Notes: generated by a model from the letters alone, not told the origin. A stretch of 64,000 bases of DNA from a virus (IMGVR_UViG_3300006104_000014:1-64000); one strand, 5' to 3'; shown: positions 29,701 through 64,000, counted from the stretch's first letter. Numbers and translations are program-made.

Positions 29701-32037
29701 TTACATGTCCCCAAATTGACTAATATCAGGGCTGTCCATTCCACCATCACCACTATGGTGTGAACCAGCACCCATGGGATCTGTAGCTTCTTCACTTCCA
29801 TGTTGATCTGGTACTACTTGAGCACCAAGATCAGAAGCTAAGTGTTCTCTAAACTCATCTTCATTAAACTTCTCATAACTATCATCTACGATGATCTTCA
29901 TACCAGAAGCAAGCTTCATTCTAACACGCTTCTTTTGCTCAATTGGTACGGCAAACTTCATACGGTTACCATACTCAACTTTACCCTGGAACTCATCATT
30001 GTCATCTTCATCCCAAAGACTGCCATTAACCGAAGAGGTTTTCTTCTTCTTTTTAGGCCCTGTCTTACCCCTAGCTTGATTTTGCTTAGGTTGAGAACCC
30101 TTTTGCTCATCTGATTGCTCTGGTCTTTGTCTTGGGTTTGGTACAGGACCAGAAGGATAAACTTCAGCAGCTCCACTAACATCGGATTGAGCAGCAGGTC
30201 CCGTAAGATTAGGGGCAGCAGGAATAGAGGAAAGGTCGGCCATTGCTTGAGGAGACATTGCAGCACCAATAGATGGGTCCTGAAGCATAGAAACATAAGC
30301 TTCGTATTCCTGTACATACTCTGGGGGAATAGGAAGCTGAAGAATCATTAATCTATCAAAGAGTTCCTTCTTATACTCCTGCTCAGCAACAACTGATTTA
30401 ATCTTCTCATCCTTACGGGCCTTGAGTTCATCATCAAAGTCAATTGGGATATTAATAGCAAGGGTACCAAGGGATACTGGGAATCCACTAGCAGCTAATT
30501 GCTGTAAGAATCCTCTTTCTACCGTTTCATCTCTGAGGTTCATAGACCGGAATCTAACCTCAGGAATAGCTAACTTAGGCCGTTCTTCTACGTATTCTTC
30601 TCCGGTTTCATCATCTACCATGAGAACCGTTTCCATAATAGGAACCATTTGGCCACCTACCTTACGGTACTCAAAGTGACCCTGTCTTTCAGCAACAGGT
30701 TCCATACGTGATCTAATGAATCTATCAATCTTATGCTGGTAGGTACTTAACATCTGGGTAATCAATTCTCTGTTAAGAGCACCAGAAGCATAAGTAGCTG
30801 AACTAGAACCACCCTGGAGTAACTCAGCACCAATACCAAAGACCTGCATAACTTTAGATTCTACACGCATAAAGTCAGCATCTAGTCTTGGCATACTTTC
30901 TCTACCGAAAGCATTCTTAATATCTAATCCATGGTGATAGGTCATTAAACGGAAGTCCGAGTTAATGGCCATACTTAGGTCATCTCTTAGTGACTGAAGT
31001 TCAGTAGCATCCGGAATCCAAGGACCATCTTCGTCAACATTAGGAAGACCAAGAGTAGCAAGGATAAGGGGAGAATACAGGCGGTCAGCAATAGCATCCT
31101 GAGCAGCATTAAGAGATTCTTCCAGCATAAGCATACGAAAAGCACGAAGAAGAATAGGAGTACCATGCTCACTCCAGGGGTTAGTCTTAAACTTTAACTG
31201 CTTCATAATAACATCAGAAACAGGAATTTCTTTATCCTGCTTAGCCCAGGCAACAATATCTGGGTAGAGTTGCATAAGCATTGCATACTCTTGGGCAGGT
31301 TCTCTGGTATCGATGAGTTTCTTAATCTCATCTGGAACTTTAATATGGTACTGGTAGGTTCTAAGAGCTCTATTCTTAGCTACAATAACATCGTTAGGGT
31401 TAATGATTTCATCATCTTCCCAGGCACCAATACCATCATGCCATGACCCCATAGCAAATGCTTCACCAACTGTCCAATGCTCTCTACCAAGGTCAAACAA
31501 AAACTCTTGGTAGTCCAGACCATCAAAGAATAATTCTGTGTAGAATTGTGCAATTCTTTTATCTGGGTGAGCAAACTCAATATCGAGAAGAGGATACCGA
31601 GTATAAATATCGATAAGTGAGGGGACTAAGTAGTGAGTAGTATAAAGAAGACGTGCCCAGTCTCTAATCTTCTTCATTTGCTCATCGGGGTCCTCCATGT
31701 TGAACCACCAGGTTCTCTCCCTCCAATATTCGAAAGGGTCATGAAGTTTTGGCCAGGCCCACTGAGCATCTGAGCCTGTTGCTGCAGCAGTACGACGGTT
31801 TTGAGTATTTGCAACCCCAAAGTCCGGAATACTGCTAAATTTTTCTAACTTTTCTCTACCACGTGATTCTTGCTGCATGGCCATAGGGCCAACATCATTA
31901 AGCATAGATCCTTGTCTTACGTTAGTAAGGATCTCTTTCGTGGCTAATCTACCACGTACAGGGTTACTAGGGAGTGTTAAGCCTTCACGTCTCATTCTCT
32001 GAAACTCGGCTGATGCACTCTTATCTTCTCTAGTCAT
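29701..32037 (-). CDS. Portal protein
   Basis: HGTPILLRAFRMLMLEESLNAAQDAIADRLYSPLILATLG clip/stem pattern; first gene of the head module. Confidence 0.85.
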   Translation of the reverse strand: MTREDKSASAEFQRMRREGLTLPSNPVRGRLATKEILTNVRQGSMLNDVGPMAMQQESRGREKLEKFSSIPDFGVANTQNRRTAAATGSDAQWAWPKLHDPFEYWRERTWWFNMEDPDEQMKKIRDWARLLYTTHYLVPSLIDIYTRYPLLDIEFAHPDKRIAQFYTELFFDGLDYQEFLFDLGREHWTVGEAFAMGSWHDGIGAWEDDEIINPNDVIVAKNRALRTYQYHIKVPDEIKKLIDTREPAQEYAMLMQLYPDIVAWAKQDKEIPVSDVIMKQLKFKTNPWSEHGTPILLRAFRMLMLEESLNAAQDAIADRLYSPLILATLGLPNVDEDGPWIPDATELQSLRDDLSMAINSDFRLMTYHHGLDIKNAFGRESMPRLDADFMRVESKVMQVFGIGAELLQGGSSSATYASGALNRELITQMLSTYQHKIDRFIRSRMEPVAERQGHFEYRKVGGQMVPIMETVLMVDDETGEEYVEERPKLAIPEVRFRSMNLRDETVERGFLQQLAASGFPVSLGTLAINIPIDFDDELKARKDEKIKSVVAEQEYKKELFDRLMILQLPIPPEYVQEYEAYVSMLQDPSIGAAMSPQAMADLSSIPAAPNLTGPAAQSDVSGAAEVYPSGPVPNPRQRPEQSDEQKGSQPKQNQARGKTGPKKKKKTSSVNGSLWDEDDNDEFQGKVEYGNRMKFAVPIEQKKRVRMKLASGMKIIVDDSYEKFNEDEFREHLASDLGAQVVPDQHGSEEATDPMGAGSHHSGDGGMDSPDISQFGDM

Positions 32038-36399: not shown

Positions 36400-36408
36400 A
36401 TGGAAATG

Positions 36409-36479
36409 TCCGGGTGGTAGGGGTCGAACCTACGGGGCCAGAGATATAAGCTCTAGTTGGATAACCGATCCACACCCGG
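36409..36479 (-). tRNA. tRNA-Ile(UAU), atypical short D-arm
   Basis: CCGGGTG/CACCCGG acceptor, TAGAG-CTTATAT-CTCTG anticodon arm, GTAGG-TTCGACC-CCTAC T-arm. Confidence 0.7.
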
Positions 36480-36488
36480 TAAGCTGAG

Positions 36489-36560
36489 CTGAGGGGGAAG
36501 GATTCGAACCCTCGACATTCGGGACCAAAACCCGACGTTCTACCACTGAACTACCCCTCA
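36489..36560 (-). tRNA. tRNA-Gln(UUG)
   Basis: TGAGGGG/CCCCTCA acceptor, TCGGG-TTTTGGT-CCCGA anticodon arm, TTCGAAT T-loop; CCA not encoded. Confidence 0.9.
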
Positions 36561-36563
36561 AGG

Positions 36564-36652
36564 TGAGAAGGAGTCAGCACCCTGTTTGTAGAGGTCTCCT
36601 GCGCATTAATCAAACAGACTCCCTATCCTTACGGTATAGGGCATCCTTCTCA
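36564..36652 (-). ncRNA. Unidentified three-way-junction structured RNA
   Basis: TGAGAAGGA/TCCTTCTCA closing stem; CCCTAT/ATAGGG and CTGTTTG/CAAACAG inner stems. Confidence 0.45.
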
Positions 36653-36686
36653 ACTCCTAGACTGAGCTAGGAAACTTATTACTTAG

Positions 36687-36926
36687 TTACTTAGTTACTG
36701 GTGGTGTTGTAGCTGGAACTGGAAGTGCACCAAGTAACCAGGAAAGCTTTGGATACTTCTCTTCAAGCTTACGGATAGCAGCGTAGTAACCAGTTGAGAG
36801 TACAGGAGCTAAAACAGCAAACTGTCCACTCTTAAGATTAAAACCTTTACTGGCTAACCAAGCAACTACGGTACCAACAACGACCGGAACACCGGTTCTA
36901 ACGACATTACGCAAGTAGTTTTGCAT
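36687..36926 (-). CDS. Holin
   Basis: Two TM helices; VRTGVP...YYAAIRKLE...WLLG pattern typical of actinophage holins. Confidence 0.75.
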   Translation of the reverse strand: MQNYLRNVVRTGVPVVVGTVVAWLASKGFNLKSGQFAVLAPVLSTGYYAAIRKLEEKYPKLSWLLGALPVPATTPPVTK

Positions 36927-36948
36927 AACTTTTCCTTTCTTTTAGGAG

Positions 36949-37020
36949 AGCCCCCGACAGGAATTGAACCTGTATCCGCTGATTACAAAACAGCCGTAAT
37001 ATCCATTATACTACAGAGGC
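36949..37020 (-). tRNA. tRNA-Thr(UGU)
   Basis: GCCTCTG/CGGGGGC acceptor, anticodon loop TTTGTAA, ACAGG-TTCAATT-CCTGT T-arm. Confidence 0.85.
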
Positions 37021-51984: not shown

Positions 51985-52316
51985 TATTTTGCTTTATTCT
52001 TTTGTTGACGTTTCTTTTGCTTTTCTTCATCTGCAGCTTGGGCTCTACCTGTATAGACTCCAATAGCATCGTAGTCATCACATTTACTGCACATATGACT
52101 ATTAGCTAGATTTTGTATAAAAGAGTCACTATGTATACCCTTACCTTGTCTTCCAATGATAGCTACAACGTGGTCATGTTGAGCTTCTCTAGAAACTAAA
52201 GCATAGCGTACTGCTCCGAATGTTTTTAATTTATCTCTAGAACTAAGCTGACCCCATATGGCTTCAATATCATCAGTTACCTGTTTGCTCGCTGCATACC
52301 TTATAGACCAGTTCAT
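51984..52316 (-). CDS. Tagged (MNWSIRYA) hypothetical protein
   Basis: Tag; coupled ORF. Confidence 0.65.
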   Translation of the reverse strand: MNWSIRYAASKQVTDDIEAIWGQLSSRDKLKTFGAVRYALVSREAQHDHVVAIIGRQGKGIHSDSFIQNLANSHMCSKCDDYDAIGVYTGRAQAADEEKQKKRQQKNKAK

Positions 52317-53734
52317 AGTATATCTTCAAACCCTTCATAGCCAGGAGCAAGCTGTCGCCATGGGTAAGCCCGTTGAAACTTGTTAGCTATATTAATCAGC
52401 CTATTGTCCTGATAGTGCAGCGCTGTTACCTGCAAACCGAACGGCAATCCATTAGAACACGCACCGAACGGTATGGATATTGCAGGCACACCTGTGACAT
52501 TTTGCATTGACTCGTTATAGTCTTTTGCTGGTGGATTATAGCTACCATCAGCAGCGAAGCCAGGGTTTGGATTGGTTGGCGTGAGAAGCAGTCCATCGCT
52601 GCCAAGGAGATCATCAAGATTTTTAATATACATAAACCTCTTGCGTCGAAGATCCATGTATTCTTGTAGGTCTACACCCTTACCTATAGTTAAAAAGTCT
52701 TTACCAGATTTAGTTAGTTTGTCCCAGTGCTTGTCTACCCACTGCTTGCCAAATTTAGTATACTGATCTGCTGACACAGCATTGTACCACTCAAGATCCG
52801 GATTGCCCTCTGGGAAAACATCCCGTGGCTCTATCCATATCACTTCGCGCTTCATTAGCTTACCAAATGCTTCTGCTGCCTCTTTAAACTTTTCAGCAGT
52901 CTCTGCTGGCAGCTTTCCAAATGGTGACGTTCTTTCAGCTGCGTATATCTTACCGACACCATATTCTTTATTGTCCAGGAAGTTAACAGCGTCCAGTGGC
53001 AAGCTTGCTGGGTCGCCAGGAGTAGGTGTTTTAAGGATATTATACATTAGTTGTAAATCGTCAGCAGAGTTAGCTAGAATACCATCAGTGGAGTAATCTA
53101 TCCAATCTTGTGCAGGCCACCGGCCTATCATGCCATTGGTTGGCTTCAGCCCAAGCAGCCCACAGTAACCTGCTGGTGTGCGAATAGATCCGCCACCGTC
53201 TGTACCTGTAGCTGCAAAGACCAGGCCAGCAGATAGTGCAGCAGCACTACCACCACTACTACCACCAGGAGCTAGCTTAATATTCCAGGGGTTAGTTGTT
53301 ACTCCTGTTAGATCATTGGCTGTGTAGCCATTGCAACCAAACTCGGGTAGTGTGCTTTTGCCAACAAAAATAAACCCACTAGCTCTCATCTTTGCTGGAG
53401 TAGCATCGTCTTGCTCCTCTGGCTTTGCATTCTTAAATGCAACGCTGCCCTTTTTAGTTGGCATGCCTTTAACATTCTGCAGATCTTTTATCAGTGCTGG
53501 TACACCATGGATTGCTCTAGTAGCTTGACCACTATCAAACATTTTAGCTTGTTGGAGCGCGTCATCATATGCTTCGTGTGCAATGACATTAAGATCTTTG
53601 TTATACTTTTCTATATTACTTATACTTTTTTCTACCAGCTGGGTAGATGTGACTTTGCCAGACTGTAGAGCAGCAACAGCGCGTGTCAATGGACCAGAAT
53701 TTTTACTAGATGAATAGCGTTGTGACCAGTTCAT
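52313..53734 (-). CDS. Amidase-signature (GatA-like) enzyme with MNWSQRYS tag
   Basis: GVPALIKD, PGGSSGGSAAA, GTDGGGSIRTPA, GLKPT: Ser-cisSer-Lys triad motifs. Confidence 0.9.
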   Translation of the reverse strand: MNWSQRYSSSKNSGPLTRAVAALQSGKVTSTQLVEKSISNIEKYNKDLNVIAHEAYDDALQQAKMFDSGQATRAIHGVPALIKDLQNVKGMPTKKGSVAFKNAKPEEQDDATPAKMRASGFIFVGKSTLPEFGCNGYTANDLTGVTTNPWNIKLAPGGSSGGSAAALSAGLVFAATGTDGGGSIRTPAGYCGLLGLKPTNGMIGRWPAQDWIDYSTDGILANSADDLQLMYNILKTPTPGDPASLPLDAVNFLDNKEYGVGKIYAAERTSPFGKLPAETAEKFKEAAEAFGKLMKREVIWIEPRDVFPEGNPDLEWYNAVSADQYTKFGKQWVDKHWDKLTKSGKDFLTIGKGVDLQEYMDLRRKRFMYIKNLDDLLGSDGLLLTPTNPNPGFAADGSYNPPAKDYNESMQNVTGVPAISIPFGACSNGLPFGLQVTALHYQDNRLINIANKFQRAYPWRQLAPGYEGFEDIL

Positions 53735-55035
53735 TGGTATTGCTCTTGTCTTTGTTCAACATTTTTACGACGTTCTTCTGCCCTACAGTCAAGGCAAGGT
53801 TGTCTAGACATATTGGGTTGTAACAACTGGCCTAATGGAACTGTATTATAGCAACTTAAGCAAGTACCAACAGATTGTGGTTTTTCAGAAGCAGCTGGTG
53901 TTGCAGCTTGTTCTGTTTGCTGTGTTTGGTTTCTTTTACGGTACTGTCTTCTTGGAGTCTTAGGGGCAGCTTTACTATCACGGTCTTCTGTTTCGTTAGC
54001 TGAATACTCTTTGGGTGAATAGTTTTTTACAAACTCACTGTAGTCATCAGAGCCTTTTGATAATCCAGCATTTACAGCAGCTTGGTGAGCAGCAGCATAA
54101 GTTCTACAACCCTCACAGGGCTTTTCTTTTAAGTTGTAGTGTTTTGATAAGTTAGAGTGGCTAGGTTGACCTTTTGGGTCTTCAGAATCCCAATCATGTT
54201 CTACACTTGCTTCTGGCCTATTAAGGTAGGCCATTCCACTATGTACACTACCATGCTTGTTAGACATCATAGCTCTAAAGGCAGCTTCTGCTTTTGCCTT
54301 TGAAGTGTGGTGAGATAAGATCTTACCTGTACCCTTTTGCCAAATTACCCAGCTTTTAGACTTCTTATCGTAACGTACATAATGGTATCCATTTTCAGAT
54401 GCATACCTTTCATTCCAATTAGCACTACCCATATGCCCTTCCATAAAAGGCTTCATCGATTCTTGTAGGTACTCATCATGGAAGGAATGTGCATTCATCT
54501 TAGAGTAATTTTCTCTAAGTTGTTCAATTGGGCCTTCTTCAATATTTGTACCCGACGACCTAGGAAATAATTCAGAATGGGGCTGTGTCTCTTGTTCAGA
54601 TCTACTTGGAAGTCCATGACAAAATACCATCAAATCTGATAAGCAATTTGAGTGTGCAGGTCCAGCAAAATGTGCACCAAAATCTGATGGAAGTATTTCT
54701 CCATCTTCACTAGGACCTGGGACTAAACGTTTTGCCATTTCTCCAGGTTTAAACTTATCCCCACACCAAATACAACGGTTTTCTCTGATGCACTTTTCAT
54801 GCATCATTGGGTTGATGCCACCGTCTGGATGCATAGTATAACCTACAGCATGTGGCTCGTCACTAAAGGAGCCTCCACCAGTAGGTCCATAGAATTTTCT
54901 AGTTGGAACGTAGTGTGGTCTTGACCTTCCAATAGGTGGATCCCATATCATACTTCTGTTCCAAAGTTTCTTTGGCTTAGCGTATCTCTTGTCCCAAGCT
55001 AAGGAACCTAAATAGTTAGTCATACTTTTACTCAC
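53731..55035 (-). CDS. Multi-module protein with an N-terminal (WDKRYA) and an internal (NWNERYA) tag
   Basis: CIWCG...H..C....C domain; second tag near 54400-54420. Confidence 0.7.
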   Translation of the reverse strand: MSKSMTNYLGSLAWDKRYAKPKKLWNRSMIWDPPIGRSRPHYVPTRKFYGPTGGGSFSDEPHAVGYTMHPDGGINPMMHEKCIRENRCIWCGDKFKPGEMAKRLVPGPSEDGEILPSDFGAHFAGPAHSNCLSDLMVFCHGLPSRSEQETQPHSELFPRSSGTNIEEGPIEQLRENYSKMNAHSFHDEYLQESMKPFMEGHMGSANWNERYASENGYHYVRYDKKSKSWVIWQKGTGKILSHHTSKAKAEAAFRAMMSNKHGSVHSGMAYLNRPEASVEHDWDSEDPKGQPSHSNLSKHYNLKEKPCEGCRTYAAAHQAAVNAGLSKGSDDYSEFVKNYSPKEYSANETEDRDSKAAPKTPRRQYRKRNQTQQTEQAATPAASEKPQSVGTCLSCYNTVPLGQLLQPNMSRQPCLDCRAEERRKNVEQRQEQYQ

Positions 55036-55280
55036 CTATACTTTTCCAATACGTCTAAGGCATCGCTTATACCAGCAGCTCTATCTGGGCTATAAATACC
55101 ATTACCAGCTGCAAGGTGGGCATTAGCAGCTACAAGGTGGGCCCTTGATAAAGGTCCCTCTGTATTTTTTGACCGGTCTAAATGGTATAAGTGTCTAGTA
55201 CCATGGTCGTAGGGATCTAATTCAGTCTGAATAAAAGGCCCAAGTGATACTTTCTTAAAACGCTCATTCCAACTATACAT
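55032..55280 (-). CDS. Tag-variant (MYSWNERF) His/Ala helical protein
   Basis: GGAG RBS before ATG at 55280. Confidence 0.6.
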   Translation of the reverse strand: MYSWNERFKKVSLGPFIQTELDPYDHGTRHLYHLDRSKNTEGPLSRAHLVAANAHLAAGNGIYSPDRAAGISDALDVLEKYR

Positions 55281-55566
55281 AAAAACTCCCAAAATCTAGT
55301 CGTGGCTTTTTTTTTGCGCAACCCCAATATTACAAGGGTATTTACACCTTCCCTTAGTCTTTTAAAGAATTACATTTGACAGAGTTACTATTGTCAAGCC
55401 GTACTTTTCGCGGGTCCTCCAAACAGTGTACTTAGTTCTCTCCTTTTAGGGGGAATTTATATACAGTTAAGGATACACTTTAAGAGACAAAAGGACAACC
55501 GGGTATCCTCCTATTAGGACAGCCATTAGGGAAATATAGGATGTTCTAAAAAACTGCATTTCTAGT

Positions 55567-55687
55567 CTCGGCTTTGGCTAACTGACGCCGTGGTTCCAGG
55601 AGATCAGCTGTTGGGGGGATGCAAATCTTTACGGCGGATAAGCCGGGGACCTATACAAGCATCCCCAGGCCTACCTGGACTGCCGAG
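55567..55687 (-). ncRNA. Unidentified GC-rich structured RNA just after the 55693 stop
   Basis: CTCGGC/GCCGAG, TCCAGG/CCTGGA, GGGGATGC/GCATCCCC and CGCCGT/ACGGCG complementarities. Confidence 0.4.
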
Positions 55688-55692
55688 GTTAA

Positions 55693-56019
55693 CTAACCCT
55701 CGTACTCGGCCTCGGCCTCGTCATCCATCTCGGGGAGAGGACCGAACTCGCAGCTGTCGAACAGCAACGTCGCGTTCGTCTTGGTGGCCCCCACGGTCTC
55801 GGCCTTCCAGCGGCCGGACTTCTCACCCTGGGTAACGATCACCACGATAACCTCTCCCTCCACCTCGTAGGCACCGAGGACCACACCGTGCCAGCTCTGA
55901 GCCTTCGGGTTGTCGGGGTTCCACGTCACCTCCTGGTACTGACCGAAGTCCTCCAGGGTGTAGGTGGCCTTGTTGGCCTTGCGGTTACTGAAACTGAAAC
56001 TGCCGGCGTTGCTAGTCAT
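55693..56019 (-). CDS. SH3-like protein with acidic tail (true start MTSNAG at 56019)
   Basis: AGGAGG RBS; VTW...WHGVV similar to 60341-60679. Confidence 0.65.
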   Translation of the reverse strand: MTSNAGSFSFSNRKANKATYTLEDFGQYQEVTWNPDNPKAQSWHGVVLGAYEVEGEVIVVIVTQGEKSGRWKAETVGATKTNATLLFDSCEFGPLPEMDDEAEAEYEG

Positions 56020-56104
56020 GTTTCCTCCTAAGGAACATGGTCTCAACCCGGGATAACGGCTACCCCGGGGTACTACTTGGTACTTCCTATCCTTAGGTCT
56101 ATTT

Positions 56105-56165
56105 CCCCCAAAGGATATATTATAATAAATCCCCGTAAGTAGGGTAATATTTTTAAATATTACCA
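56105..56165 (-). promoter_or_regulatory. Early promoter repeat copy 1 with inverted-repeat operator
   Basis: TTACCC-N17-TATAAT-ATATCCTTTGGGG; GGTAATATTT-TT-AAATATTACC palindrome; diverged copy at 56241-56297. Confidence 0.6.
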
Positions 56166-56809
56166 TCTCCTACCAGGACTCCCCGGGATTTCCGGGAATG
56201 CAATGGGACCAATTGGCCTTTAATTACTTAGGCCTATTTGCCCCATTTGGTATATTATTATAAATTACCGTAAGTAGGGTAAAATTTATAAATATTAGCT
56301 ACTTCTACCATCCTGCAAGTGTTATAGCTTTCTGGAGAAGTGTTGGTGCTATATAGCTCCTAAAGCGTGTTAGACACGTCTGTCACTATAAGGTAGTCAC
56401 CATACTATATGTCCCGTCAGCACCTATAGTAGTAGGAGTGTACTATAATTAACGTCTCCGTCTACATATGGCAGGCACACGTGTACACATGCAGTTCTAC
56501 TAGATAAACACTGCTGTCCTATAGCTGTTGAGCTGCAGACACATCCATCCTACCTAGCCTACTAGTAGTCGTATACTCTTTAACTACTTTTTCTGTAGAC
56601 ACCTTAGATTAACATCCCAAACACACCTTACTTTAACACGTATAGTATGGGATGTTGGAGATAGAAATAGTAGTAAGTATGATAGTATAACGTGGATACG
56701 ACGTAATACTATAGGTTATCTACACACCTATGCCCTATCCACTACTACCATACCTACTACTATTCTATTTTAACGACTCCGTAGGATCACTCTTTCTTTC
56801 GCTACGCTC

Positions 56810-57100
56810 CTACGAAATGCATCCTACCAACACTCCGAGCCCAAAGACTAGACCAGCAAAGATAGCCAACACCGCCGTTCCTATTGGCGATACGAAGATG
56901 TCCAAATCATCAACGAGTTCGTCGTAGTCTTGGTTGTTTAGTTCAGGCATTTTCTCCACAATCTTCTCGAATTCCGTGTCGTAATAGCTTTGCATGACGA
57001 GATCGTACTCATCAGCATCTTGCTTCCATTCTTCATCTTGCTCTTCTTTACCGAGGTCTTCATGGTGAACCCCTTCAAAGATATCATCCCAATCCATCAC
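56810..57100 (-). CDS. Acidic protein with C-terminal TM helix
   Basis: GGAGG RBS; hydrophobic C-terminus. Confidence 0.6.
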   Translation of the reverse strand: MMDWDDIFEGVHHEDLGKEEQDEEWKQDADEYDLVMQSYYDTEFEKIVEKMPELNNQDYDELVDDLDIFVSPIGTAVLAIFAGLVFGLGVLVGCIS

Positions 57101-57372
57101 TCCTCCTCTTCTTCTTCTTCAGCAGGGAACATCTTCTCCCAGCATGCAGGGCAGGTACCGGAGATCAACATCTCACGGTCATCAGCACTCAACTCCGGAA
57201 AAGCCTCCTGGATTGCCATCTCCTTGTTTTGCCAACGGAGGAATTTAACTCCATCAACACGGATACCAGGGTTGTCCTTCTGGCACATCAAGCACCTGGT
57301 TTCGATGTACATCTGCCCTTCTTCCAGCTGAATCTCTTCACCACTTCTGGCGAAAAAGGTCGTTGCCATCAT
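57097..57372 (-). CDS. Zn-binding hypothetical protein (paralog of 62897-63139)
   Basis: CLMC...IQEAFPELSADDREMLISGTCPACW; GGAGG RBS before ATG at 57372. Confidence 0.65.
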   Translation of the reverse strand: MMATTFFARSGEEIQLEEGQMYIETRCLMCQKDNPGIRVDGVKFLRWQNKEMAIQEAFPELSADDREMLISGTCPACWEKMFPAEEEEEEE

Positions 57373-57381
57373 TTCCTCCAC

Positions 57382-57441
57382 TTAGCCTGTCTCATCAGTA
57401 CCAGTAGGCTAATTCCGGTAGAGGCCTCACGGCCTTTCGAC
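57382..57441 (-). ncRNA. Type II hammerhead ribozyme HH1
   Basis: GUC GAAA GGCC GUGA GGCC UC^ UACCGG AAUUAGCCUA CUGGUA CUGAUGA GAC AGGCUAA; cleavage 57421/57420. Confidence 0.9.
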
Positions 57442-57845
57442 TACCGCAGATCGTTAGCGGCATCTTCTGGGAACTTCTGCTCGTATGCCCTGGCAATGAC
57501 TCCGTCACTGCTCAGCTTCATCATGTCGAACACCTCAATCCAGAGTCCTGAGATACTCTTGGAGATCCGACGGTAAGAAGCAGACTGTGTCATGTACTTC
57601 TCCTTCTTCTCCTTCCTGTCTTCGGACTGTTCCTCCTTCTCTTCAGACTCGGCGTACTCAATGAACCGGTTGCTGTGGGCAAGCAATGCTGACAAGATCC
57701 GGTCCCACTGTTCGTAGGACAACTCGATGGAAACCGTCAACGGTTCTTGCATCCTTTCTTTCTGTGCCCTGTAAGTCTCGATACGAGTATCGAAGTCACC
57801 GTCGATCTTGTCCACCAACTCCTGGGTTGTCTCTTCCGCTTCCAT
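57441..57845 (-). CDS. Helical hypothetical protein
   Basis: 134 aa between HH2 and HH1. Confidence 0.65.
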   Translation of the reverse strand: MEAEETTQELVDKIDGDFDTRIETYRAQKERMQEPLTVSIELSYEQWDRILSALLAHSNRFIEYAESEEKEEQSEDRKEKKEKYMTQSASYRRISKSISGLWIEVFDMMKLSSDGVIARAYEQKFPEDAANDLR

Positions 57846-57857
57846 ATTTCCCCCTAG

Positions 57858-57916
57858 TAGTCTGTCTCATCAGGTGTGGTAGACTAATTCCACACTACGC
57901 CTCACGGCGTTTCGAC
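57858..57916 (-). ncRNA. Type II hammerhead ribozyme HH2
   Basis: GUC GAAA CGCC GUGA GGCG UA^ GUGUGG AAUUAGUCUA CCACAC CUGAUGA GAC AGACUA; cleavage 57896/57895. Confidence 0.9.
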
Positions 57917-57925
57917 CGTACCTTT

Positions 57926-58264
57926 TTAAGCGTACTCGCGGTTTTCACCGATGTACCGTACGTACTTCTTGTATGTACCATTAGGTTGACGTCGGATTGT
58001 AGTCTCATAAGGCAACTTGTCTACCTCGTAACCGTTTTGCTTGTTGAACTTGGTCATGGGCACATGCATAAGCGTTGCCAAAATAGTAGTCGTTGAACGA
58101 TAAGTGTTGTGCTCACTCCAAAGGAACCACACACCTGGGTTGTCCTTTAGCTGCTTCTCCCGGATTATGGTCCTTATCGAAAGGTTCCTGCTTCCGGGTA
58201 GAGGGTCAACGATGGCTACTGGCTCTTCTTGTTGCATCTCAAACTTACTATACACCCTGTACAT
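57926..58264 (-). CDS. Hypothetical protein (NPGVW...YVRYIG family)
   Basis: AAGGAG RBS; between HH3 and HH2. Confidence 0.65.
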   Translation of the reverse strand: MYRVYSKFEMQQEEPVAIVDPLPGSRNLSIRTIIREKQLKDNPGVWFLWSEHNTYRSTTTILATLMHVPMTKFNKQNGYEVDKLPYETTIRRQPNGTYKKYVRYIGENREYA

Positions 58265-58282
58265 GTTGAGCTCCTTACTATG

Positions 58283-58340
58283 GGCCTGTCTCCTCAGTGC
58301 AGTTAGGCCAAATCCTGCAGACGCCTTACGGCGTTTCGAC
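58283..58340 (-). ncRNA. Type II hammerhead ribozyme HH3
   Basis: GUC GAAA CGCC GUAA GGCG UC^ UGCAG GAUUUGGCCUAA CUGCA CUGAGGA GAC AGGCC; cleavage 58320/58319. Confidence 0.9.
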
Positions 58341-58693
58341 TAGTGGATACCGTAGTAATCGAAGAGTTCTTCGATGGGATCCATCTCACGTCGGAGTATG
58401 TCATTTGCAACTCTGGAAGCCAATTCGAAGGTGTCGTAGTAGGCGTTGTGGTAAATACCACCCATCTTACTCTTAATCTCCATCTCCAGCTTGTATGGGC
58501 CTGAGTCACCACCAAGTGTGGAGATCATCACATCAAACGAATTGGGCCAGCGGGATGAGTCAAAATTCTCATCAGAGTGCAACACCAAACCTGCATCGTT
58601 GACAATGCGGTAATTGTGGATACCGTATCCGTCAAGATCGATTACACTCGTCAACTTCCACTTCACACCATCTACTTCGTAATCCGTCTTCAT
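58340..58693 (-). CDS. Hypothetical protein (start MKTDYE at 58693)
   Basis: ATGA overlap with the upstream small ORF. Confidence 0.6.
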   Translation of the reverse strand: MKTDYEVDGVKWKLTSVIDLDGYGIHNYRIVNDAGLVLHSDENFDSSRWPNSFDVMISTLGGDSGPYKLEMEIKSKMGGIYHNAYYDTFELASRVANDILRREMDPIEELFDYYGIH

Positions 58694-58866
58694 CGCATTG
58701 CATCCTTCCAAACAATGTTTTGGGCGTAGGTAACACTCTGTCTACCATCGATGTGGCCAACAACTACTTTGCAACGGCCACCTTGAGTAGCAAAACTCTC
58801 AACAATGGCAATCTGTCCTTTGACCGTACAAACACGGCCAATATCGGACACCTTCAGCTGATTCAT
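58690..58866 (-). CDS. Small beta-barrel-like protein (58 aa; not in the ORF track)
   Basis: GGAGG RBS directly after HH4; MNQLKVSDIGRVCTVKG... Confidence 0.6.
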   Translation of the reverse strand: MNQLKVSDIGRVCTVKGQIAIVESFATQGGRCKVVVGHIDGRQSVTYAQNIVWKDAMR

Positions 58867-58878
58867 TGTTCCTCCATT

Positions 58879-58937
58879 TGGTCTGCCTCATCAGCACCGG
58901 TGGACCAGTTCCGGTGGACGCCTCACGGCGTTTCGGC
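58879..58937 (-). ncRNA. Type II hammerhead ribozyme HH4
   Basis: GCC GAAA CGCC GUGA GGCG UC^ CACCGG AACUGGUCCA CCGGUG CUGAUGA GGC AGACCA; cleavage 58917/58916. Confidence 0.9.
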
Positions 58938-58948
58938 ATTACTACCGA

Positions 58949-59554
58949 TTACTTCTTGGCCTTGGCCAGCTTCGTGTTCCAGTCCAGCATGTCAGGACGG
59001 ATTGGCTCCAAACGTGCCTGAACTCTCATCTGTCCAACCTCGCAGAGCCGAGTTCCAACGGACACATACAATCCGTTCTTGACGGCCTGCTTACGGAGGT
59101 AACACGCAAAGGCGTCACGCTTGTGGTAAGGAACATCCACGATGTGGACTTCACCGTTCAACAGCTTATCGATGTCAAACAAACGTGACCACAAGACGTA
59201 TCGGCTGCCCTTGTTGAGGCTACCGGATCGCTTCTTGTCCTTATTGGACTTCCTGGTCTTGACACTCTTCGTGTCAGGTCCTGGGTCTTCCTGCTTCATG
59301 GGGACAAGGGGCTTAGACTCTGACACCTTTTTAACACTGGTGTCATAAAAGACCTTGTTACCGGCCTTCATCGTCTGGTCCATTAAAGCACTGCAAAGAA
59401 CCTCGTTGGACGAGTGTTCCAGGATACGACTCAGGAAGATATCGATTGCCTGATCGACAATCTCTTCCTTGGTCGTAGGGGTAGGGTTTATGTAAACCAA
59501 CAGGCACTCAATAAGCTGCAGCTTCTGTTGGGACACGGGGGACAGCTCTTGCAT
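58949..59554 (-). CDS. Hypothetical basic protein (possible DNA binding)
   Basis: GGGAG RBS; between HH5 and HH4. Confidence 0.6.
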   Translation of the reverse strand: MQELSPVSQQKLQLIECLLVYINPTPTTKEEIVDQAIDIFLSRILEHSSNEVLCSALMDQTMKAGNKVFYDTSVKKVSESKPLVPMKQEDPGPDTKSVKTRKSNKDKKRSGSLNKGSRYVLWSRLFDIDKLLNGEVHIVDVPYHKRDAFACYLRKQAVKNGLYVSVGTRLCEVGQMRVQARLEPIRPDMLDWNTKLAKAKK

Positions 59555-59583
59555 GTCTTTCTCCCATTTCTCACTGATAACAA

Positions 59584-59645
59584 CGATCTGCCATCATCAG
59601 GCCTAAGGTGATCAATCCTTAGACGACGCCTCACGGCGTTTCGGC
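59584..59645 (-). ncRNA. Type II hammerhead ribozyme HH5 (extra U after CUGAUGA)
   Basis: GCC GAAA CGCC GUGA GGCG UC^ GUCUAAGG AUUGAUCA CCUUAGGC CUGAUGA U GGC AGAUCG; cleavage 59625/59624. Confidence 0.85.
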
Positions 59646-59659
59646 ATTACTACCGATTA

Positions 59660-60103
59660 CTACAGGTACACCATCCAATCAAAGGAGGACCGGTCCGAAA
59701 CTCGGATGGTCTTGTCCGTTGAAGCCTGCAACAACCGGATCTGGTTGTCAATCTCTGAAAAGTTCGGCTCCTGAGGCTCTTGAGGCTTCGTGTACCAGTC
59801 ATTAGTCAAAAACGCTGGGTCCAAGCCGGACAAGTCAACCCTTGGGGCCACCGGCTCCCAACTGTAGCCTTGGATGTGGAATCCAATCTTTCCATCCTTA
59901 CTGGTGTAAAACCCACCACGGTTTGCAAATTCCACTTCATTGGCCTTGATCCAGGCCTTTACGGCAACTTCCACTGCCTTGTTCCAGGTCTTCAGACGTG
60001 TAGGGTAAGCCTTGACTTCCTCCACGTAACGAGCCATACGGTCCACTTTCCACTGCTCGAGAGCATCGATCAGGTATTGCTTCTCATACTTGTAGCTTGC
60101 CAT
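59660..60103 (-). CDS. Hypothetical protein (start MASYKY at 60103)
   Basis: GGAGG RBS; between HH6 and HH5. Confidence 0.65.
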   Translation of the reverse strand: MASYKYEKQYLIDALEQWKVDRMARYVEEVKAYPTRLKTWNKAVEVAVKAWIKANEVEFANRGGFYTSKDGKIGFHIQGYSWEPVAPRVDLSGLDPAFLTNDWYTKPQEPQEPNFSEIDNQIRLLQASTDKTIRVSDRSSFDWMVYL

Positions 60104-60133
60104 CAGGCATTCCTCCAAAGGAACACTGAATCA

Positions 60134-60194
60134 ACGGTTGTCTCATCAGGCCTGGGGTACCGCACCCCAGACGACATCCATAGGATGTTTCGAC
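60134..60194 (-). ncRNA. Type II hammerhead ribozyme HH6
   Basis: GUC GAAA CAUCC UAU GGAUG UC^ GUCUGGGG UGCGGUA CCCCAGGC CUGAUGA GAC AACCGU; cleavage 60173/60172. Confidence 0.9.
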
Positions 60195-60232
60195 CTTACT
60201 AACACTACCTACTATATCCTTAGGTACATTTC

Positions 60233-60286
60233 CCCCAAAGGATATATTATAATAAATTCCCGAATATTGCAAATTTATAATAAATA
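60233..60286 (-). promoter_or_regulatory. Early promoter repeat copy 2
   Basis: TTGCAA-N17-TAATAT with AT-rich upstream; 54 bp identical to 63173-63226. Confidence 0.7.
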
Positions 60287-60301
60287 GTAGGTGCAGGGGA
60301 G

Positions 60302-60329
60302 TGGGCAGTTTACGGTCGTACCCAGGACC
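60302..60329 (-). ncRNA. Small H-type pseudoknot, copy A
   Basis: GGUC CUGGGUAC GACC GUAAAC UGCCCA, 11 nt after a stop codon. Confidence 0.55.
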
Positions 60330-60340
60330 TAACAGTTGGC

Positions 60341-60679
60341 CTACAGATCTTGCAACTCTTCGTCTTCTGCAAAGATGTTACCATCAAACACATCGGTCTC
60401 ATCGACGTCATCGATTCCAAAGACCTCATCGGCCATCTCTTCAACCTCTTCAAGGAGGTCGGATGAGAAGGTGGTCACCACAGGAAGCACCTTAGCAACA
60501 TTGTCACCAGTGTGGACCTCCTCGGAAACTCGACCACTCTTGTCCTCCCAAAGTACTCGGACGAAGTAGTCGCCCTCGTGATCTTCGGTTGGCACCTCAA
60601 TGACCACACCGTTCCATTCCTTGGAACGTGGGGTCTTCTTCCGCCAAGTGACCTTTTGGCCCTCTGAGAAGTTCATCAT
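60341..60679 (-). CDS. SH3-like protein with acidic tail
   Basis: AAGGAG RBS after HH7; VTW...WNGVVI...VRVLW. Confidence 0.7.
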   Translation of the reverse strand: MMNFSEGQKVTWRKKTPRSKEWNGVVIEVPTEDHEGDYFVRVLWEDKSGRVSEEVHTGDNVAKVLPVVTTFSSDLLEEVEEMADEVFGIDDVDETDVFDGNIFAEDEELQDL

Positions 60680-60694
60680 TTCTATCTCCTTACT

Positions 60695-60753
60695 ATTAGC
60701 CTGTCATCTTCAGCACCGGGTGGCTAATCCCGATGGACCTATTAGGTTTCGAC
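60695..60753 (-). ncRNA. Type II hammerhead ribozyme HH7
   Basis: GUC GAAA CCU AAU AGG UC^ CAUCGGG AUUAGCCA CCCGGUG CUGAAGA U GAC AGGCUAAU; cleavage 60736/60735. Confidence 0.85.
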
Positions 60754-60858
60754 TAACTACACTAATTAATTGACGGTAGCAACATTAAGTAGACTACATC
60801 TCAATGTTCCGTACCTACTACCTTACTTACTATACCCTTTATTTTAACGGGCTAAGAA

Positions 60859-60886
60859 TGGGCCTTTTATTGTCATACCCAGGACA
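60859..60886 (-). ncRNA. Small H-type pseudoknot, copy B
   Basis: UGUC CUGGGUAU GACA AUAAAAG GCCCA, 12 nt after a stop codon; covaries with copy A. Confidence 0.55.
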
Positions 60887-60898
60887 TTAGGAGTGTTA

Positions 60899-61216
60899 CT
60901 ACCTTATTGCATCCACTCCGTAATATTGCCCATCCTTATCAATGAACTCTCTCTTCAACGTAGTCAATGCCCAATTTGAAGCATCCAAGAAGTTATCGAA
61001 AGATTGTTCAAACTTAGCTTCACCCATTCGTCCAGCAAGGCCAACTCCAGCTTTGAAGGATTCATCGGCCATATGAACAATATCAGCAAAACTGATATCA
61101 TCTTGCTTGGTTGGGTTCCAAGGACGTTCTTCAAGGGTCCAATAATAACCCTCATCACCCCCTACGCCACATTCCAACCAAAAAGCTCCGTCGATACTAT
61201 AGTTCTTACTATCCAT
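60899..61216 (-). CDS. Hypothetical protein
   Basis: 105 aa coupled ORF. Confidence 0.6.
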   Translation of the reverse strand: MDSKNYSIDGAFWLECGVGGDEGYYWTLEERPWNPTKQDDISFADIVHMADESFKAGVGLAGRMGEAKFEQSFDNFLDASNWALTTLKREFIDKDGQYYGVDAIR

Positions 61217-61371
61217 TATGGCCTTTCATCTTCTTTCATCAAATCGTGATTAGCTGGTGGATAATCCCAATCTTCGGTGTGCATACAATCATACCCTGCA
61301 ATCCAGTTGGAGCACATCCTCAGATGGTTTTCACGGGCCAACACCATCTCTTCATACGAGTTGAATAGCAT
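61216..61371 (-). CDS. Small hypothetical protein (51 aa; not in the ORF track)
   Basis: MLFNSYEEMVLARENH...; TAATG overlaps at both ends. Confidence 0.55.
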   Translation of the reverse strand: MLFNSYEEMVLARENHLRMCSNWIAGYDCMHTEDWDYPPANHDLMKEDERP

Positions 61372-61610
61372 TAATCCTCCTCTCTTTCTCTTACTTCACT
61401 GTTGGTGACTCTACCGTTGATACCCAACGAATGATCAGGAGGGTTCAACAAAAGACCACGACTAGCCATGAAGTTGTCCATAATCACCTCACTAGCTTTG
61501 AGTCGGTCCTCGTTGAGTTGCAGGAGATCTTCATCGGTGATCTTCTCCTTACCATCAGCTACCATCACAAACATGTAGTAGTTGGCTAGATACTCTCTGG
61601 TAACTTCCAT
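61371..61610 (-). CDS. Hypothetical protein
   Basis: GGAG RBS, 79 aa. Confidence 0.6.
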   Translation of the reverse strand: MEVTREYLANYYMFVMVADGKEKITDEDLLQLNEDRLKASEVIMDNFMASRGLLLNPPDHSLGINGRVTNSEVREREED

Positions 61611-61816
61611 TATATCTCCTCTACTGGTGGGTTACAACACTTACACTCGCCACCGCCCCCTGGGCCGGTAACTGAGAAACTACCATCTCTGTTTTGGGTC
61701 AATCCAGTCCATACTGCAACCTGACCATAATCTTCGATGGACCATACTGAGCCTGGAAAGGCCGTATGCATAGCAGCAACGAAATCATCTTCGTCCTTAA
61801 AAGCTACCTTACTCAT
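61610..61816 (-). CDS. Hypothetical protein (start MSKVAF)
   Basis: AAGGAG RBS; overlaps the upstream stop. Confidence 0.55.
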   Translation of the reverse strand: MSKVAFKDEDDFVAAMHTAFPGSVWSIEDYGQVAVWTGLTQNRDGSFSVTGPGGGGECKCCNPPVEEI

Positions 61817-62192
61817 CGTTCTCCTTCTTAGCCAGCTCATTACGTTGGAAGATGTCCAAGGTCTCTTCGTAGGTCATACCGGCAACCTCGTACCATGGTG
61901 CATCGAACAGGTGGTGTCCTTCGAGTATGGCTACTGCACCATGCTCTTCACCAATCTGACCGCCAACCTGCCATCCTCCGGTGTTACAATTGTTTTCACT
62001 ATCATACGGACCGAACTCAAAGTACGTACTGATACTAAAGAACTCATCGTAGGCATTCTGGGAGATCAGCTCCTGAGACAACTGACCCAAGACGTACCTC
62101 TCCTGGGTTTCGTTGGACTCCTTTACTTCATCGGTCATGACATCATAACCACCATGACGTACTGCCATGTACTTGATTTCACGGTACTTCAT
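61809..62192 (-). CDS. Hypothetical protein
   Basis: AAGGAG RBS, 127 aa. Confidence 0.6.
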   Translation of the reverse strand: MKYREIKYMAVRHGGYDVMTDEVKESNETQERYVLGQLSQELISQNAYDEFFSISTYFEFGPYDSENNCNTGGWQVGGQIGEEHGAVAILEGHHLFDAPWYEVAGMTYEETLDIFQRNELAKKENDE

Positions 62193-62204
62193 TATTGCTC
62201 CTTA

Positions 62205-62402
62205 CTAGTAGTTTGTCTTTTGACAATCTGGACAGGCCAACCACAACTCATCGGCTTGGGTATCTAGGTGGGCCCTCCATTGGTCATCATAACCATCTGG
62301 GTCAGCTACCTCCTCCTTCCACTTTTCGTCTCTAACCTTATAGCAAAAATCACACTGTTGCATTTGTTTACTTTCTGTTGTATGGGTTGTCACTGACATC
62401 AA
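62205..62402 (-). CDS. Small Zn-finger protein
   Basis: CDFC...CPDC. Confidence 0.5.
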   Translation of the reverse strand: MMSVTTHTTESKQMQQCDFCYKVRDEKWKEEVADPDGYDDQWRAHLDTQADELWLACPDCQKTNY

Positions 62403-62715
62403 TCATCCAAGGGCTGACCCAACCGGTATCTTGCTTCTCTCGGATGTCCTTAGCGGTCATACCACAAGGGCAACCTTGATCACCCCACCAAATCAATGTA
62501 CCACAGCAAAGGGAAGGCTCCATACCGGGAACACGTCCAATCTTTTGCTTACACATCACACAAGGCTCATCCTTGTTGGTATCATCAACGAAGTGCATCA
62601 CCAAAACTTCTGGGTCAACGGTAACTCCAAGGTCATAAGCAGCACACATCCAACACCAGATGTGACCTTCATTCTTATCAATGAAGTACTCTAGCATCTC
62701 TTGGTCCACTGTCAT
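62368..62715 (-). CDS. Cys-rich hypothetical protein
   Basis: GAGG RBS; multiple CxxC. Confidence 0.55.
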   Translation of the reverse strand: MTVDQEMLEYFIDKNEGHIWCWMCAAYDLGVTVDPEVLVMHFVDDTNKDEPCVMCKQKIGRVPGMEPSLCCGTLIWWGDQGCPCGMTAKDIREKQDTGWVSPWMIDVSDNPYNRK

Positions 62716-62894
62716 CGCTTATCCTCTCTGTTAGACTTGAGCACATGCTCTTTCCCCCACATGGTTGCTTCGAACTCCGAAGCCGTAACCCTATTGGAGA
62801 CCCAATCACAAGTACATGTAACGATGTACCGTGGCTTATCCTTTTCAACTGGGATCTTACTCTCAGTCCAGATACTTACCGTTGCTTCATGCAT
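62712..62894 (-). CDS. Small CxC...H Zn-binding protein (paralog of 63322-63522)
   Basis: YIVTCTCDWVS...WGKEH. Confidence 0.55.
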   Translation of the reverse strand: MHEATVSIWTESKIPVEKDKPRYIVTCTCDWVSNRVTASEFEATMWGKEHVLKSNREDKR

Positions 62895-62896
62895 AC

Positions 62897-63139
62897 TTAC
62901 TCACTTTCTAGCATTTCGTCGTAACAACTACCACAAACAAACGTCCCAATCAACGCCCTTTCATCTAAGCGTAATTCAGGAAATGCTTTCTCTAAGGACA
63001 ACTCACGGTTAAGCCATTTCATTATCCTTTTCTCTTTTACGATCAAGAGGTAAATAATCTCACATTCTACACACTCAACCTCAACTCCAATCTTACCATG
63101 GCCAATACCATCTAGGTAGACCAAATCATAACTGTCCAA
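62897..63139 (-). CDS. Zn-binding protein (paralog of 57097)
   Basis: AAGGAGG RBS; CVEC...LEKAFPELRLDERALI...CGSC. Confidence 0.6.
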   Translation of the reverse strand: MDSYDLVYLDGIGHGKIGVEVECVECEIIYLLIVKEKRIMKWLNRELSLEKAFPELRLDERALIGTFVCGSCYDEMLESE

Positions 63140-63172
63140 ACAGGTCTACCTCCTTATCCTTAGTACATATTA

Positions 63173-63226
63173 CCCCAAAGGATATATTATAATAAATTCC
63201 CGAATATTGCAAATTTATAATAAATA
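63173..63226 (-). promoter_or_regulatory. Early promoter repeat copy 3
   Basis: Identical to 60233-60286. Confidence 0.7.
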
Positions 63227-63321
63227 AGAGTTACTACTGTTTCTCTGTCTATGGGTCCCTATTATACCCCATCCAGTGTATGAGCATAAGAGACCTAATT
63301 GTAATAAGGTCTCACACAATA

Positions 63322-63522
63322 CTAACCCCACCTACTAAATATGGGTTTATCCACGTAAGTGCTTGTACTCACATGGTTTGAAGCCCAAACCTTTGCAATA
63401 AATTTGGTTGTATAAAGCTTGGGGTCAGACCATCCACATTCACATATTGCTTTGTAAAGGTGGACATTCTTACCACTTACTCTATATGGACCAACCTTAA
63501 CTGCTTTGGCGTAATGCTTCAT
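63322..63522 (-). CDS. Small CxC...H Zn-binding protein
   Basis: YKAICECGWS...WASNH. Confidence 0.55.
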   Translation of the reverse strand: MKHYAKAVKVGPYRVSGKNVHLYKAICECGWSDPKLYTTKFIAKVWASNHVSTSTYVDKPIFSRWG

Positions 63523-63653
63523 TCTGACTCAGCAGGTGGAAAAGGCTCCTGGGACCATTCTTGCTTTTGAACGGTCTTACCAGACTTTTCTACTGACCAG
63601 GTAGTGCGTACCCAAGCACGTGCCTTTGAAACAAACTTAACTGTCTGACGCAT
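63519..63653 (-). CDS. Small hypothetical protein (44 aa; not in the ORF track)
   Basis: MRQTVKFVSKARAWVRTTW...; ATGA overlap. Confidence 0.45.
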   Translation of the reverse strand: MRQTVKFVSKARAWVRTTWSVEKSGKTVQKQEWSQEPFPPAESE

Positions 63654-63684
63654 ATTATCTCTTTCTCTTACCCTTAATTGGGAG

Positions 63685-63766
63685 TGCCCGGAGCGGGACT
63701 CGAACCCGCACGACTTTCGTCACTGGCACCTAAAGCCAGCGTGTCTGCCTATTCCACCATCCGGGC
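63685..63766 (-). tRNA. tRNA-Leu(UAG)
   Basis: GCCCGGA/TCCGGGC acceptor, CTGGC-TTTAGGT-GCCAG anticodon arm, long variable arm, TTCGAGT T-loop. Confidence 0.9.
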
Positions 63767-63771
63767 GGATA

Positions 63772-64000
63772 CTACAGAGTATAAACTTCCTTACCCTTTT
63801 GCTGGGAATACCTTACAGTAGCCCAACTTGAATCTAAAAGTGATCCATACTTATCTTCAGTAGCAACAATCATATTATCGGATACGTCAACAATTTTCCT
63901 ATTACGGTGAATAAAGGGCAACGACTCCAATACCGTTGTTTCACCCTTACTATAATCACCTTGCAGCTCCTTAAAGGTCGGAGGATAAACGTTAATTTTA
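63772..64000 (-). CDS. SLOG-family (DprA/YspA-like) protein, C-terminal part
   Basis: HRNRKIVDVSDNMIVA...SSWATVRYSQQKGKEV*. Confidence 0.6.
   Translation of the reverse strand, partial: KINVYPPTFKELQGDYSKGETTVLESLPFIHRNRKIVDVSDNMIVATEDKYGSLLDSSWATVRYSQQKGKEVYTL

Follow-up and report, generated by a model that had tools for sequence, protein, structure and literature searches.

We analysed a 64,000-nucleotide window of viral DNA (bases 1-64000 of the 77,359-bp IMG/VR record IMGVR_UViG_3300006104_000014; completeness ~52% by CheckV) and found that the record carries 13 type II hammerhead ribozyme motifs, all on the minus strand, at 57389-71302 as delimited by a strict descriptor. The motifs, here labelled HHA to HHM, span 13.9 kb, with seven inside the window and six past its end. 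An earlier note on this DNA had described an array of seven; the in-window copies stand, and the total for the record is 13, the largest copy number among the phage records counted in this analysis. The motifs, their intact cores, their covariation, their strand and their placement are seen directly in the DNA. With a probability of about 0.62, we read them as 13 catalytically competent hammerheads carried by transcripts from a small-gene block that is accessory and probably early; these transcripts would be cut co-transcriptionally into gene-sized messages.

The descriptor was hand-written and asked for a 3-bp stem II, GAAA, a stem III of at least 4 bp, U-H, a stem I of at least 4 bp, CUGANGA and the second strand of stem II. 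Applied to the 77,359-bp record, it gave 13 matches, all on the minus strand, whereas the plus strand and 40 dinucleotide shuffles gave no match. The covariance model derived from these copies scored them at 54.6-81.1 bits; its next-best match in the genome reached only 10.6 bits, so the record holds no degenerate extra copies. Descriptor and covariance model recover all seven spacers that the earlier note had assigned to type II hammerheads, at the same coordinates, and the seven new 5' ends predicted there agree with our reading (Table 1).

The Rfam hammerhead models, which the earlier note had proposed as a check, recovered the array in part. RF02276 (Hammerhead_II; gathering score 37 bits) placed two of the seven in-window copies above its gathering score (HHJ, 58877-58938, 46.7 bits; HHH, 60132-60195, 44.9 bits) and three below it (HHG, 60695-60754, 35.1 bits; HHM, 57381-57442, 31.2 bits; HHI, 59582-59646, 30.5 bits; E = 0.0004-0.007). 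HHL (57858-57916) and HHK (58283-58340) went unreported by Rfam; both satisfy the strict descriptor. Because the Rfam threshold catches only 4 of the 13 copies genome-wide, arrays of this sort are under-annotated, and most of their copies would escape annotation pipelines. A permissive Rfam scan found no other ribozyme class in 52000-64000 or in the 17 kb past the window. The bare pattern CTGANGA...GAAA is uninformative (10 matches versus 5 expected), and single-sequence fold z-scores, modest at -0.8 to -3.9, were not used as evidence.

The seven in-window copies have one order of parts: a 3-nt strand of stem II, GAAA, a stem III hairpin of 4-6 bp, U followed by a nucleotide other than G, a stem I hairpin of 5-8 bp, CUGANGA, the second strand of stem II and a tail complementary to loop I. 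The core is complete in 13/13 copies, comprising CUGANGA, GAAA, the A15.1-U16.1 and G10.1-C11.1 pairs and a position 17 that is not G (C in 10 copies, U in two and A in one). An extra U stands between A9 and G10.1 in four copies. No copy has an unpaired stem position, and most positions in stems I and III show two to four different pair types; stem II is GUC/GAC in 11 copies and GCC/GGC in two neighbouring copies that flank one gene. When copies from related phages were added, 98% of alignment cells were paired versus 71% in shuffles, 12 of 14 pairs varied on both sides, and the covariation score was 0.734 versus 0.198 for shuffled alignments (0 of 500 shuffles reached 0.734; slid controls gave at most 0.07), in an alignment that is model-fitted and thus biased toward the structure. 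The covariation supports a three-way junction in the type II permutation, with stems I and III capped and stem II open.

The pseudoknot between loop I and the tail comprises 4-7 bp in 13/13 copies, with a mean of 5.7 bp; shuffled tails gave a mean of 3.74 bp and a maximum of 4.54 bp in 2000 shuffles. Seven different loop/tail sequence pairs, in which loop and tail covary, occur across the 13 copies. The covariations quoted in the earlier note, both in the loop/tail pairs and between the GUC/GAC and GCC/GGC forms of stem II, are genuine by the alignment of the copies. These results support an assignment of the motifs as canonical type II hammerheads with a loop I/3'-tail pseudoknot, for which self-cleavage is predicted.

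Individual copies have features of their own. HHF has a long stem III hairpin of 28 nt, and HHB has a G-U pair within stem II. HHI and HHJ are preceded by an identical 15 nt, and HHA and HHL have identical loops, tails and following CUAGG. The 5' sequence UAGUC of HHA, HHF, HHG and HHL (for example 57854-57918 and 60693-60755), made up of the stop codon and the stem II strand, is similar to loop I, which allows the pseudoknot tail to pair with it as well and gives a presumably inactive 5-bp helix in minimum-free-energy folds.

Every copy lies on the sense strand of the small-gene block and ends 0-18 nt ahead of a strong Shine-Dalgarno sequence, often inside the phage's usual UAGUAAGGAG. Eight of the 13 begin on the G of the upstream UAG stop codon, three begin 9-14 nt past a stop, and two lie in longer spacers. 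The earlier note had described this placement for the in-window copies, and it holds there: five begin 0-14 nt past the upstream stop, two are in longer spacers, and all end shortly ahead of the next Shine-Dalgarno. Its further statement that one ribozyme stands before each ribosome-binding site (RBS) was overstated, because the interval from one ribozyme to the next sometimes contains two or more genes: successive ribozymes enclose one gene in seven units, two genes in three and longer stretches in two, and a hammerhead is present at only 13 of ~46 gene junctions.

An upstream stop that runs into stem II is a widespread feature of phage copies and not special to this phage. In a set of 113 type II hammerheads, recovered by pattern from 80 other IMG/VR loci, the stop of an open reading frame of at least 40 codons has a last base that is also the first base of stem II in 39 copies, and the stop ends one base earlier in 19 more (58/113 together). 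An A precedes stem II in 98 of the 113, stop or no stop.

The overlap with the stop codon bears on a different reading, in which the fold would work chiefly uncut, or would cut slowly or only under some conditions, either as a structured element of the 5' untranslated region that shapes translation initiation or with its folding gated by a ribosome terminating upstream, so that cleavage would depend on translation of the preceding gene. Since eight of the 13 copies overlap the UAG by one base, a terminating ribosome must, given the known ribosome footprint, cover stem II and half of stem III; gating could nevertheless merely delay cutting, because cleavage is irreversible, and the overlap may be no more than economical packing, because an A precedes stem II in 98/113 other copies regardless of a stop. 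The tails of HHA, HHF, HHG and HHL offer an inactive alternative in minimum-free-energy predictions, but its 5-bp helix is weaker than the 8-10 stacked bp of stem II and pseudoknot together, a stack that the folding program is unable to represent. Copies with altered cores do occur in relatives, with UUGAUAAGA, CCGAUGA, or GAUAA replacing GAAA (L137:14820-14884, L128:19508-19572 and L137:17942-18007); by their sequences these may be decaying or variant ribozymes. The cores here, by contrast, are canonical in 13/13 copies, which points to selection for catalysis, and we regard a mainly non-cutting role, or slow, conditional or gated cutting, as quite improbable.

From the features described above we infer cleavage in vivo, its speed and its effects on stability and translation, as follows. 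The ~60-nt fold would form as RNA polymerase passes each copy, the 3-bp stem II would stack on the 4-7-bp loop I/tail pseudoknot, and the RNA would cut itself after position 17, constitutively, during transcription. The upstream message would retain its stop codon, and its 3' end, a 2',3'-cyclic phosphate, would fall ~20 nt past that stop, in the stem III hairpin. The message behind the cut would begin with a 5'-OH, paired from its first nucleotide and buried in stem I and the pseudoknot, 0-18 nt ahead of its strong Shine-Dalgarno. Long transcripts from five or six repeated promoters would be divided into messages of one or two genes whose ends are fixed and structured (predicted in-window units of 563, 548, 708, 597, 424 and 475 nt), and the translation start and stability of each gene would become independent of upstream sequence.

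The putative promoters are near-identical copies of a 45-54-nt sigma-70-type element that occurs five or six times, all on the coding strand of the small-gene block, and that ends in an 8-bp hairpin (AUAUCCUU...AAGGAUAU). Only the copy at 60233-60286, where a contig depth of 38x fits a repeat, directly precedes a hammerhead. That hammerhead, HHH, lies ~45 nt past the predicted transcript start, in keeping with the earlier placement of this copy about 40 nt behind a promoter; a Shine-Dalgarno GGAGG follows 17 nt after its tail, and cleavage would remove a leader of ~66 nt.

The predicted ends invite the further idea that the hammerhead reverse reaction or host RtcB ligase re-ligates units that were cut on both sides, giving gene-length RNAs that are circular or spliced. 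By established chemistry RtcB accepts ends of this kind, a 5'-OH and a 2',3'-cyclic phosphate, and halves of successive ribozymes could pair, since stem II is GUC/GAC in 11/13 copies and GCC/GGC in the adjacent pair flanking one gene. The same possibility is raised by Perreault et al. (2011; PMC3088659), yet spliced or circular products were sought there from clustered hammerheads and none was found. Moreover, ends 420-710 nt apart would be joined by 3 bp only, and the 77-kb record, about half of the genome, contains no RtcB or RNA ligase gene. We consider rejoining highly improbable.

Several points weigh against processing of the block by self-cleavage. Viroid hammerheads tolerate an extra U at the place where four copies have one, and also U17, but either can slow cleavage. 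About 33 other junctions of the same block have no ribozyme. A sequencing-run search found this DNA in four freshwater DNA metagenome runs and in no RNA run. The search of related phage genomes suggested in the earlier note had a divided outcome: among relatives whose large terminase is 62-77% identical, three have hammerheads (5, 4 and 4 copies) and two have no copies, one of the latter being a complete 124.7-kb genome with terminal repeats, so that the array is dispensable in the lineage. The earlier note held that 5'-OH ends resist RNase J, a claim that fails on the glmS ribozyme, because in B. subtilis its 5'-OH product is attacked by RNase J1 (Collins, 2007; reviewed in PMC3328962); on this precedent a 5'-OH can, in hosts with RNase J, hasten decay rather than slow it. 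Protection, if there is any, would therefore have to lie in the base pairing and pseudoknot at the 5' end.

With 0-5 copies in relatives, the array is an accessory, fast-changing trait, which raises the question of why the copies sit where they do. One answer, compatible with processing by self-cleavage, is that ribozyme plus RBS serves mainly as a portable joint between gene cassettes, at which accessory genes swap by recombination while RNA cleavage is kept but secondary. Besides the variable copy number, the gene content fits: the relatives' hammerheads precede different genes, and block genes have no homologues in the 10-kb flanks of 16 related loci with 62-77% identical terminase, except for two genes (238 and 162 aa) at the terminase-proximal end, upstream of the first ribozyme, which do. 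In relatives (L128, L137 and L138, 12-22 kb) block and terminase lie convergently on opposite strands, whereas here they are co-directional, so the block was inverted in one lineage; close paralogues have common flanks (HHI/HHJ and HHA/HHL), and the assembly graphs of four metagenomes jump between copies. However, repeats acting only as DNA would not retain 13/13 cores while their stems vary by compensatory pairs, no copy departs from the sense strand or from the register of stop and start signals, and no recombinant junction at a hammerhead was observed between two phages. As the main role of the array, a cassette joint seems to us possible but somewhat unlikely.

A more ambitious proposal is that stop codon, ribozyme and RBS together form a portable, self-contained gene joint by which phages would plug accessory genes into operons and which would free each gene's expression from its neighbours, with cutting timed by upstream translation through the stop built into stem II. 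We think this unlikely; if true, a gene joint with ribosome gating would amount to an as yet undescribed general principle of phage operon architecture, reaching beyond a curiosity of one genome.

Outside the terminase relatives, unrelated phage records that we sampled have 8, 5, 4, 4 and 3 copies. A blastn search of the region against cultured phages gave a single hammerhead-sized match, to Dulem virus 39, which has 3 copies. The Mycobacterium phages Phrappuccino and Breeniome, whose portals are 34-39% identical to the one here, gave no match to the covariance model.

Table 1. Hammerhead copies, promoter repeats and genes of the record. Positions past 64000 are genome positions, with the corresponding L001 positions in brackets.
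Feature	Coordinates	Strand	Predicted cleavage (new 5' end)	Details
HHM, type II hammerhead	57382-57441	minus	after C57421 (57420)	stem II GUC/GAC; tail AGGCUAA with loop I UUAGCCU; first G doubles as the last base of the UAG stop that ends the upstream 134-aa gene; model 80.2 bits
HHL, type II hammerhead	57858-57916	minus	after A57896 (57895)	GUA cleavage triplet; tail AGACUA with loop UAGUCU; begins 9 nt past a TAA stop; model 81.1 bits
HHK, type II hammerhead	58283-58340	minus	after C58320 (58319)	core CUGAGGA; tail AGGCC with loop GGCCU; first G common to the upstream UAG stop; model 74.6 bits
HHJ, type II hammerhead	58879-58937	minus	after C58917 (58916)	stem II GCC/GGC; tail GACCA with loop UGGUC
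HHI, type II hammerhead	59584-59645	minus	after C59625 (59624)	stem II GCC/GGC; extra U after CUGAUGA; model 59.4 bits
HHH, type II hammerhead	60134-60194	minus	after C60173 (60172)	tail ACCGU with loop GCGGU
HHG, type II hammerhead	60695-60753	minus	after C60736 (60735)	core CUGAAGA plus extra U; tail GGCUAAU with loop AUUAGCC; within a 145-nt spacer behind the previous gene; model 64.5 bits
HHA-HHF, six copies past the window	65643-65709, 66317-66369, 67254-67309, 67788-67842, 70968-71020, 71248-71302 (L001:5643-11302)	minus		type II
Promoter repeat	60233-60286	minus		TTTGCA, 16 nt, TATAAT, then the 8-bp hairpin at the predicted transcript start
Promoter repeat, second copy	63173-63226	minus		54 nt identical to 60233-60286; no hammerhead behind
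Promoter repeat, third in-window copy	56088-56135	minus		94% identical; no hammerhead behind
Promoter repeats past the window	71722-71764, 69352-69382, partial 73073-73087 (L001:11722-11764, 9352-9382, 13073-13087)	minus
Eight small genes with messages that the ribozymes would separate	57097-60679	minus		112, 147, 201, 58+117, 112, 134 and 90 aa; no confident family
Tape-measure protein	6139-8931	minus
Sheath	11450-12898	minus
Portal	29701-32037	minus
Large terminase	73120-75114	minus

All genes of the record are on the minus strand, and they include those of a tailed phage with a sheath. The virus is an uncultured freshwater myovirus with its hammerheads inside an accessory gene block that is probably early; we infer the early timing from the small orphan genes and the repeated promoters. 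The portal resembles those of large Mycobacterium, Gordonia and Rhodococcus phages (34-39% identity), which makes an actinobacterial host plausible. The ribozyme block lies between the terminase and amidase genes and comprises ~46 small genes, almost all of them orphans. Of 20 small proteins compared with Pfam and PHROGs, 19 had no usable match, and IMG/VR has no relative for the 201-aa gene inside the array or for a 434-aa gene just below it. The gene at 57097-57369 matches phrog_20898, of unknown function.

The metagenome contigs from the four runs are identical to the window and contain no natural variants. Assembly 'joints' considered as variation proved to be cross-matches between paralogous ribozymes and promoter repeats and are uninformative on cleavage.

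The amidase-family gene (473 aa; PF01425, E = 2e-71; 52313-53734) is 99% identical to L142:13044-14462. The L142 homologue lies directly behind a terminase that is only 62% identical to the one here, in a match spanning 2.7 kb; the difference between the two identities suggests a recent mosaic exchange, with the ribozyme block inserted between terminase and amidase.

Four tRNA genes lie on the minus strand at 36408-37020 and 63684-63766, with anticodons for Ile(TAT), Gln(TTG), Thr(TGT) and Leu(TAG), and Rfam lists three of the four at its gathering threshold. The tRNA-Leu gene is within the small-gene block, in the HHF-HHG interval, flanked by stretches of 388 nt and 458 nt with no called gene. 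A further stretch of 674 nt (56136-56809), just upstream of a promoter repeat, holds no convincing minus-strand gene and has no Rfam match at E up to 10. The small-gene block at 56001-64000 has a G+C content of 0.45-0.48, versus ~0.41 elsewhere in the window, and a stronger negative GC skew.

The earlier note had presented gene-by-gene punctuation of an operon as new. This claim fails, because a 2011 paper (PMC3088659) had already described the type II form, the loop I/tail pseudoknot and clusters of hammerheads around single phage genes. That paper also proposed processing into single-gene mRNAs and reported that three clustered prophage arrangements cleave in vitro, one of them also in vivo; the type II pseudoknot hammerheads tested there cleave in vitro. 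The array is a genuine, unusually large and regular example of a kind known since then and no new category of system. Its members resemble the type II hammerhead of RF02276 and PMC3088659 in permutation and core, in the very short stem II (3 bp here; 2 bp is common in the paper), in the pseudoknot of at least 4 bp right behind stem II and in the A ahead of it; we see no structural difference, and four copies here have the extra U. As in the prophage clusters of Agrobacterium tumefaciens (a triple around ardA), Clostridium scindens and Azorhizobium caulinodans (PMC3088659), same-strand hammerheads bracket single genes or short blocks. The arrangements tested there were a triple and ~2-kb tandem arrangements, whereas here 13 copies occupy 14 kb of a large lytic-type myovirus. 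All of them are fused to the next RBS and eight to the previous stop, a regularity unmentioned in the sections of PMC3088659 drawn on here.

The role of bacterial and phage hammerheads was still called largely elusive in a 2019 review (PMC6765202). With 13 intact copies, defined promoters and exact predicted cut sites, the array is a convenient test bed for whether operons are converted into single-gene messages, whether structured ends alter stability and whether the RBS is insulated as it is by the engineered insulator RiboJ.

By analogy, we propose the array as a natural counterpart of the RiboJ insulator and of the RNase III processing of T7 early mRNA. In the latter, reportedly described by Dunn and Studier in the 1970s, RNase III cuts the early polycistronic mRNA of phage T7 into single messages. 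In both systems early transcripts would be cut between genes into messages that end in hairpins; T7 relies on a host protein that leaves 5'-phosphate and 3'-OH ends, whereas self-cutting with 5'-OH and cyclic phosphate ends is predicted here. RiboJ-type hammerhead insulators show 84-94% cleavage in vivo, and their uncleaved mRNA decays faster (PMC7536230). In RiboJ a hammerhead between promoter and RBS strips a variable leader and leaves a structured 5'-OH, a layout that HHH also has; RiboJ is an engineered type III satellite-RNA hammerhead with an added hairpin (PMC7536230), whereas the copies here are natural, of type II and mostly between cistrons. The glmS ribozyme likewise cleaves in a leader and leaves a 5'-OH on the coding part (PMC3328962), but it depends on a ligand and destabilises its message, whereas no ligand pocket is evident here. 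The outcome for the array may be the opposite, because the new 5' end would be base-paired from its first nucleotide.

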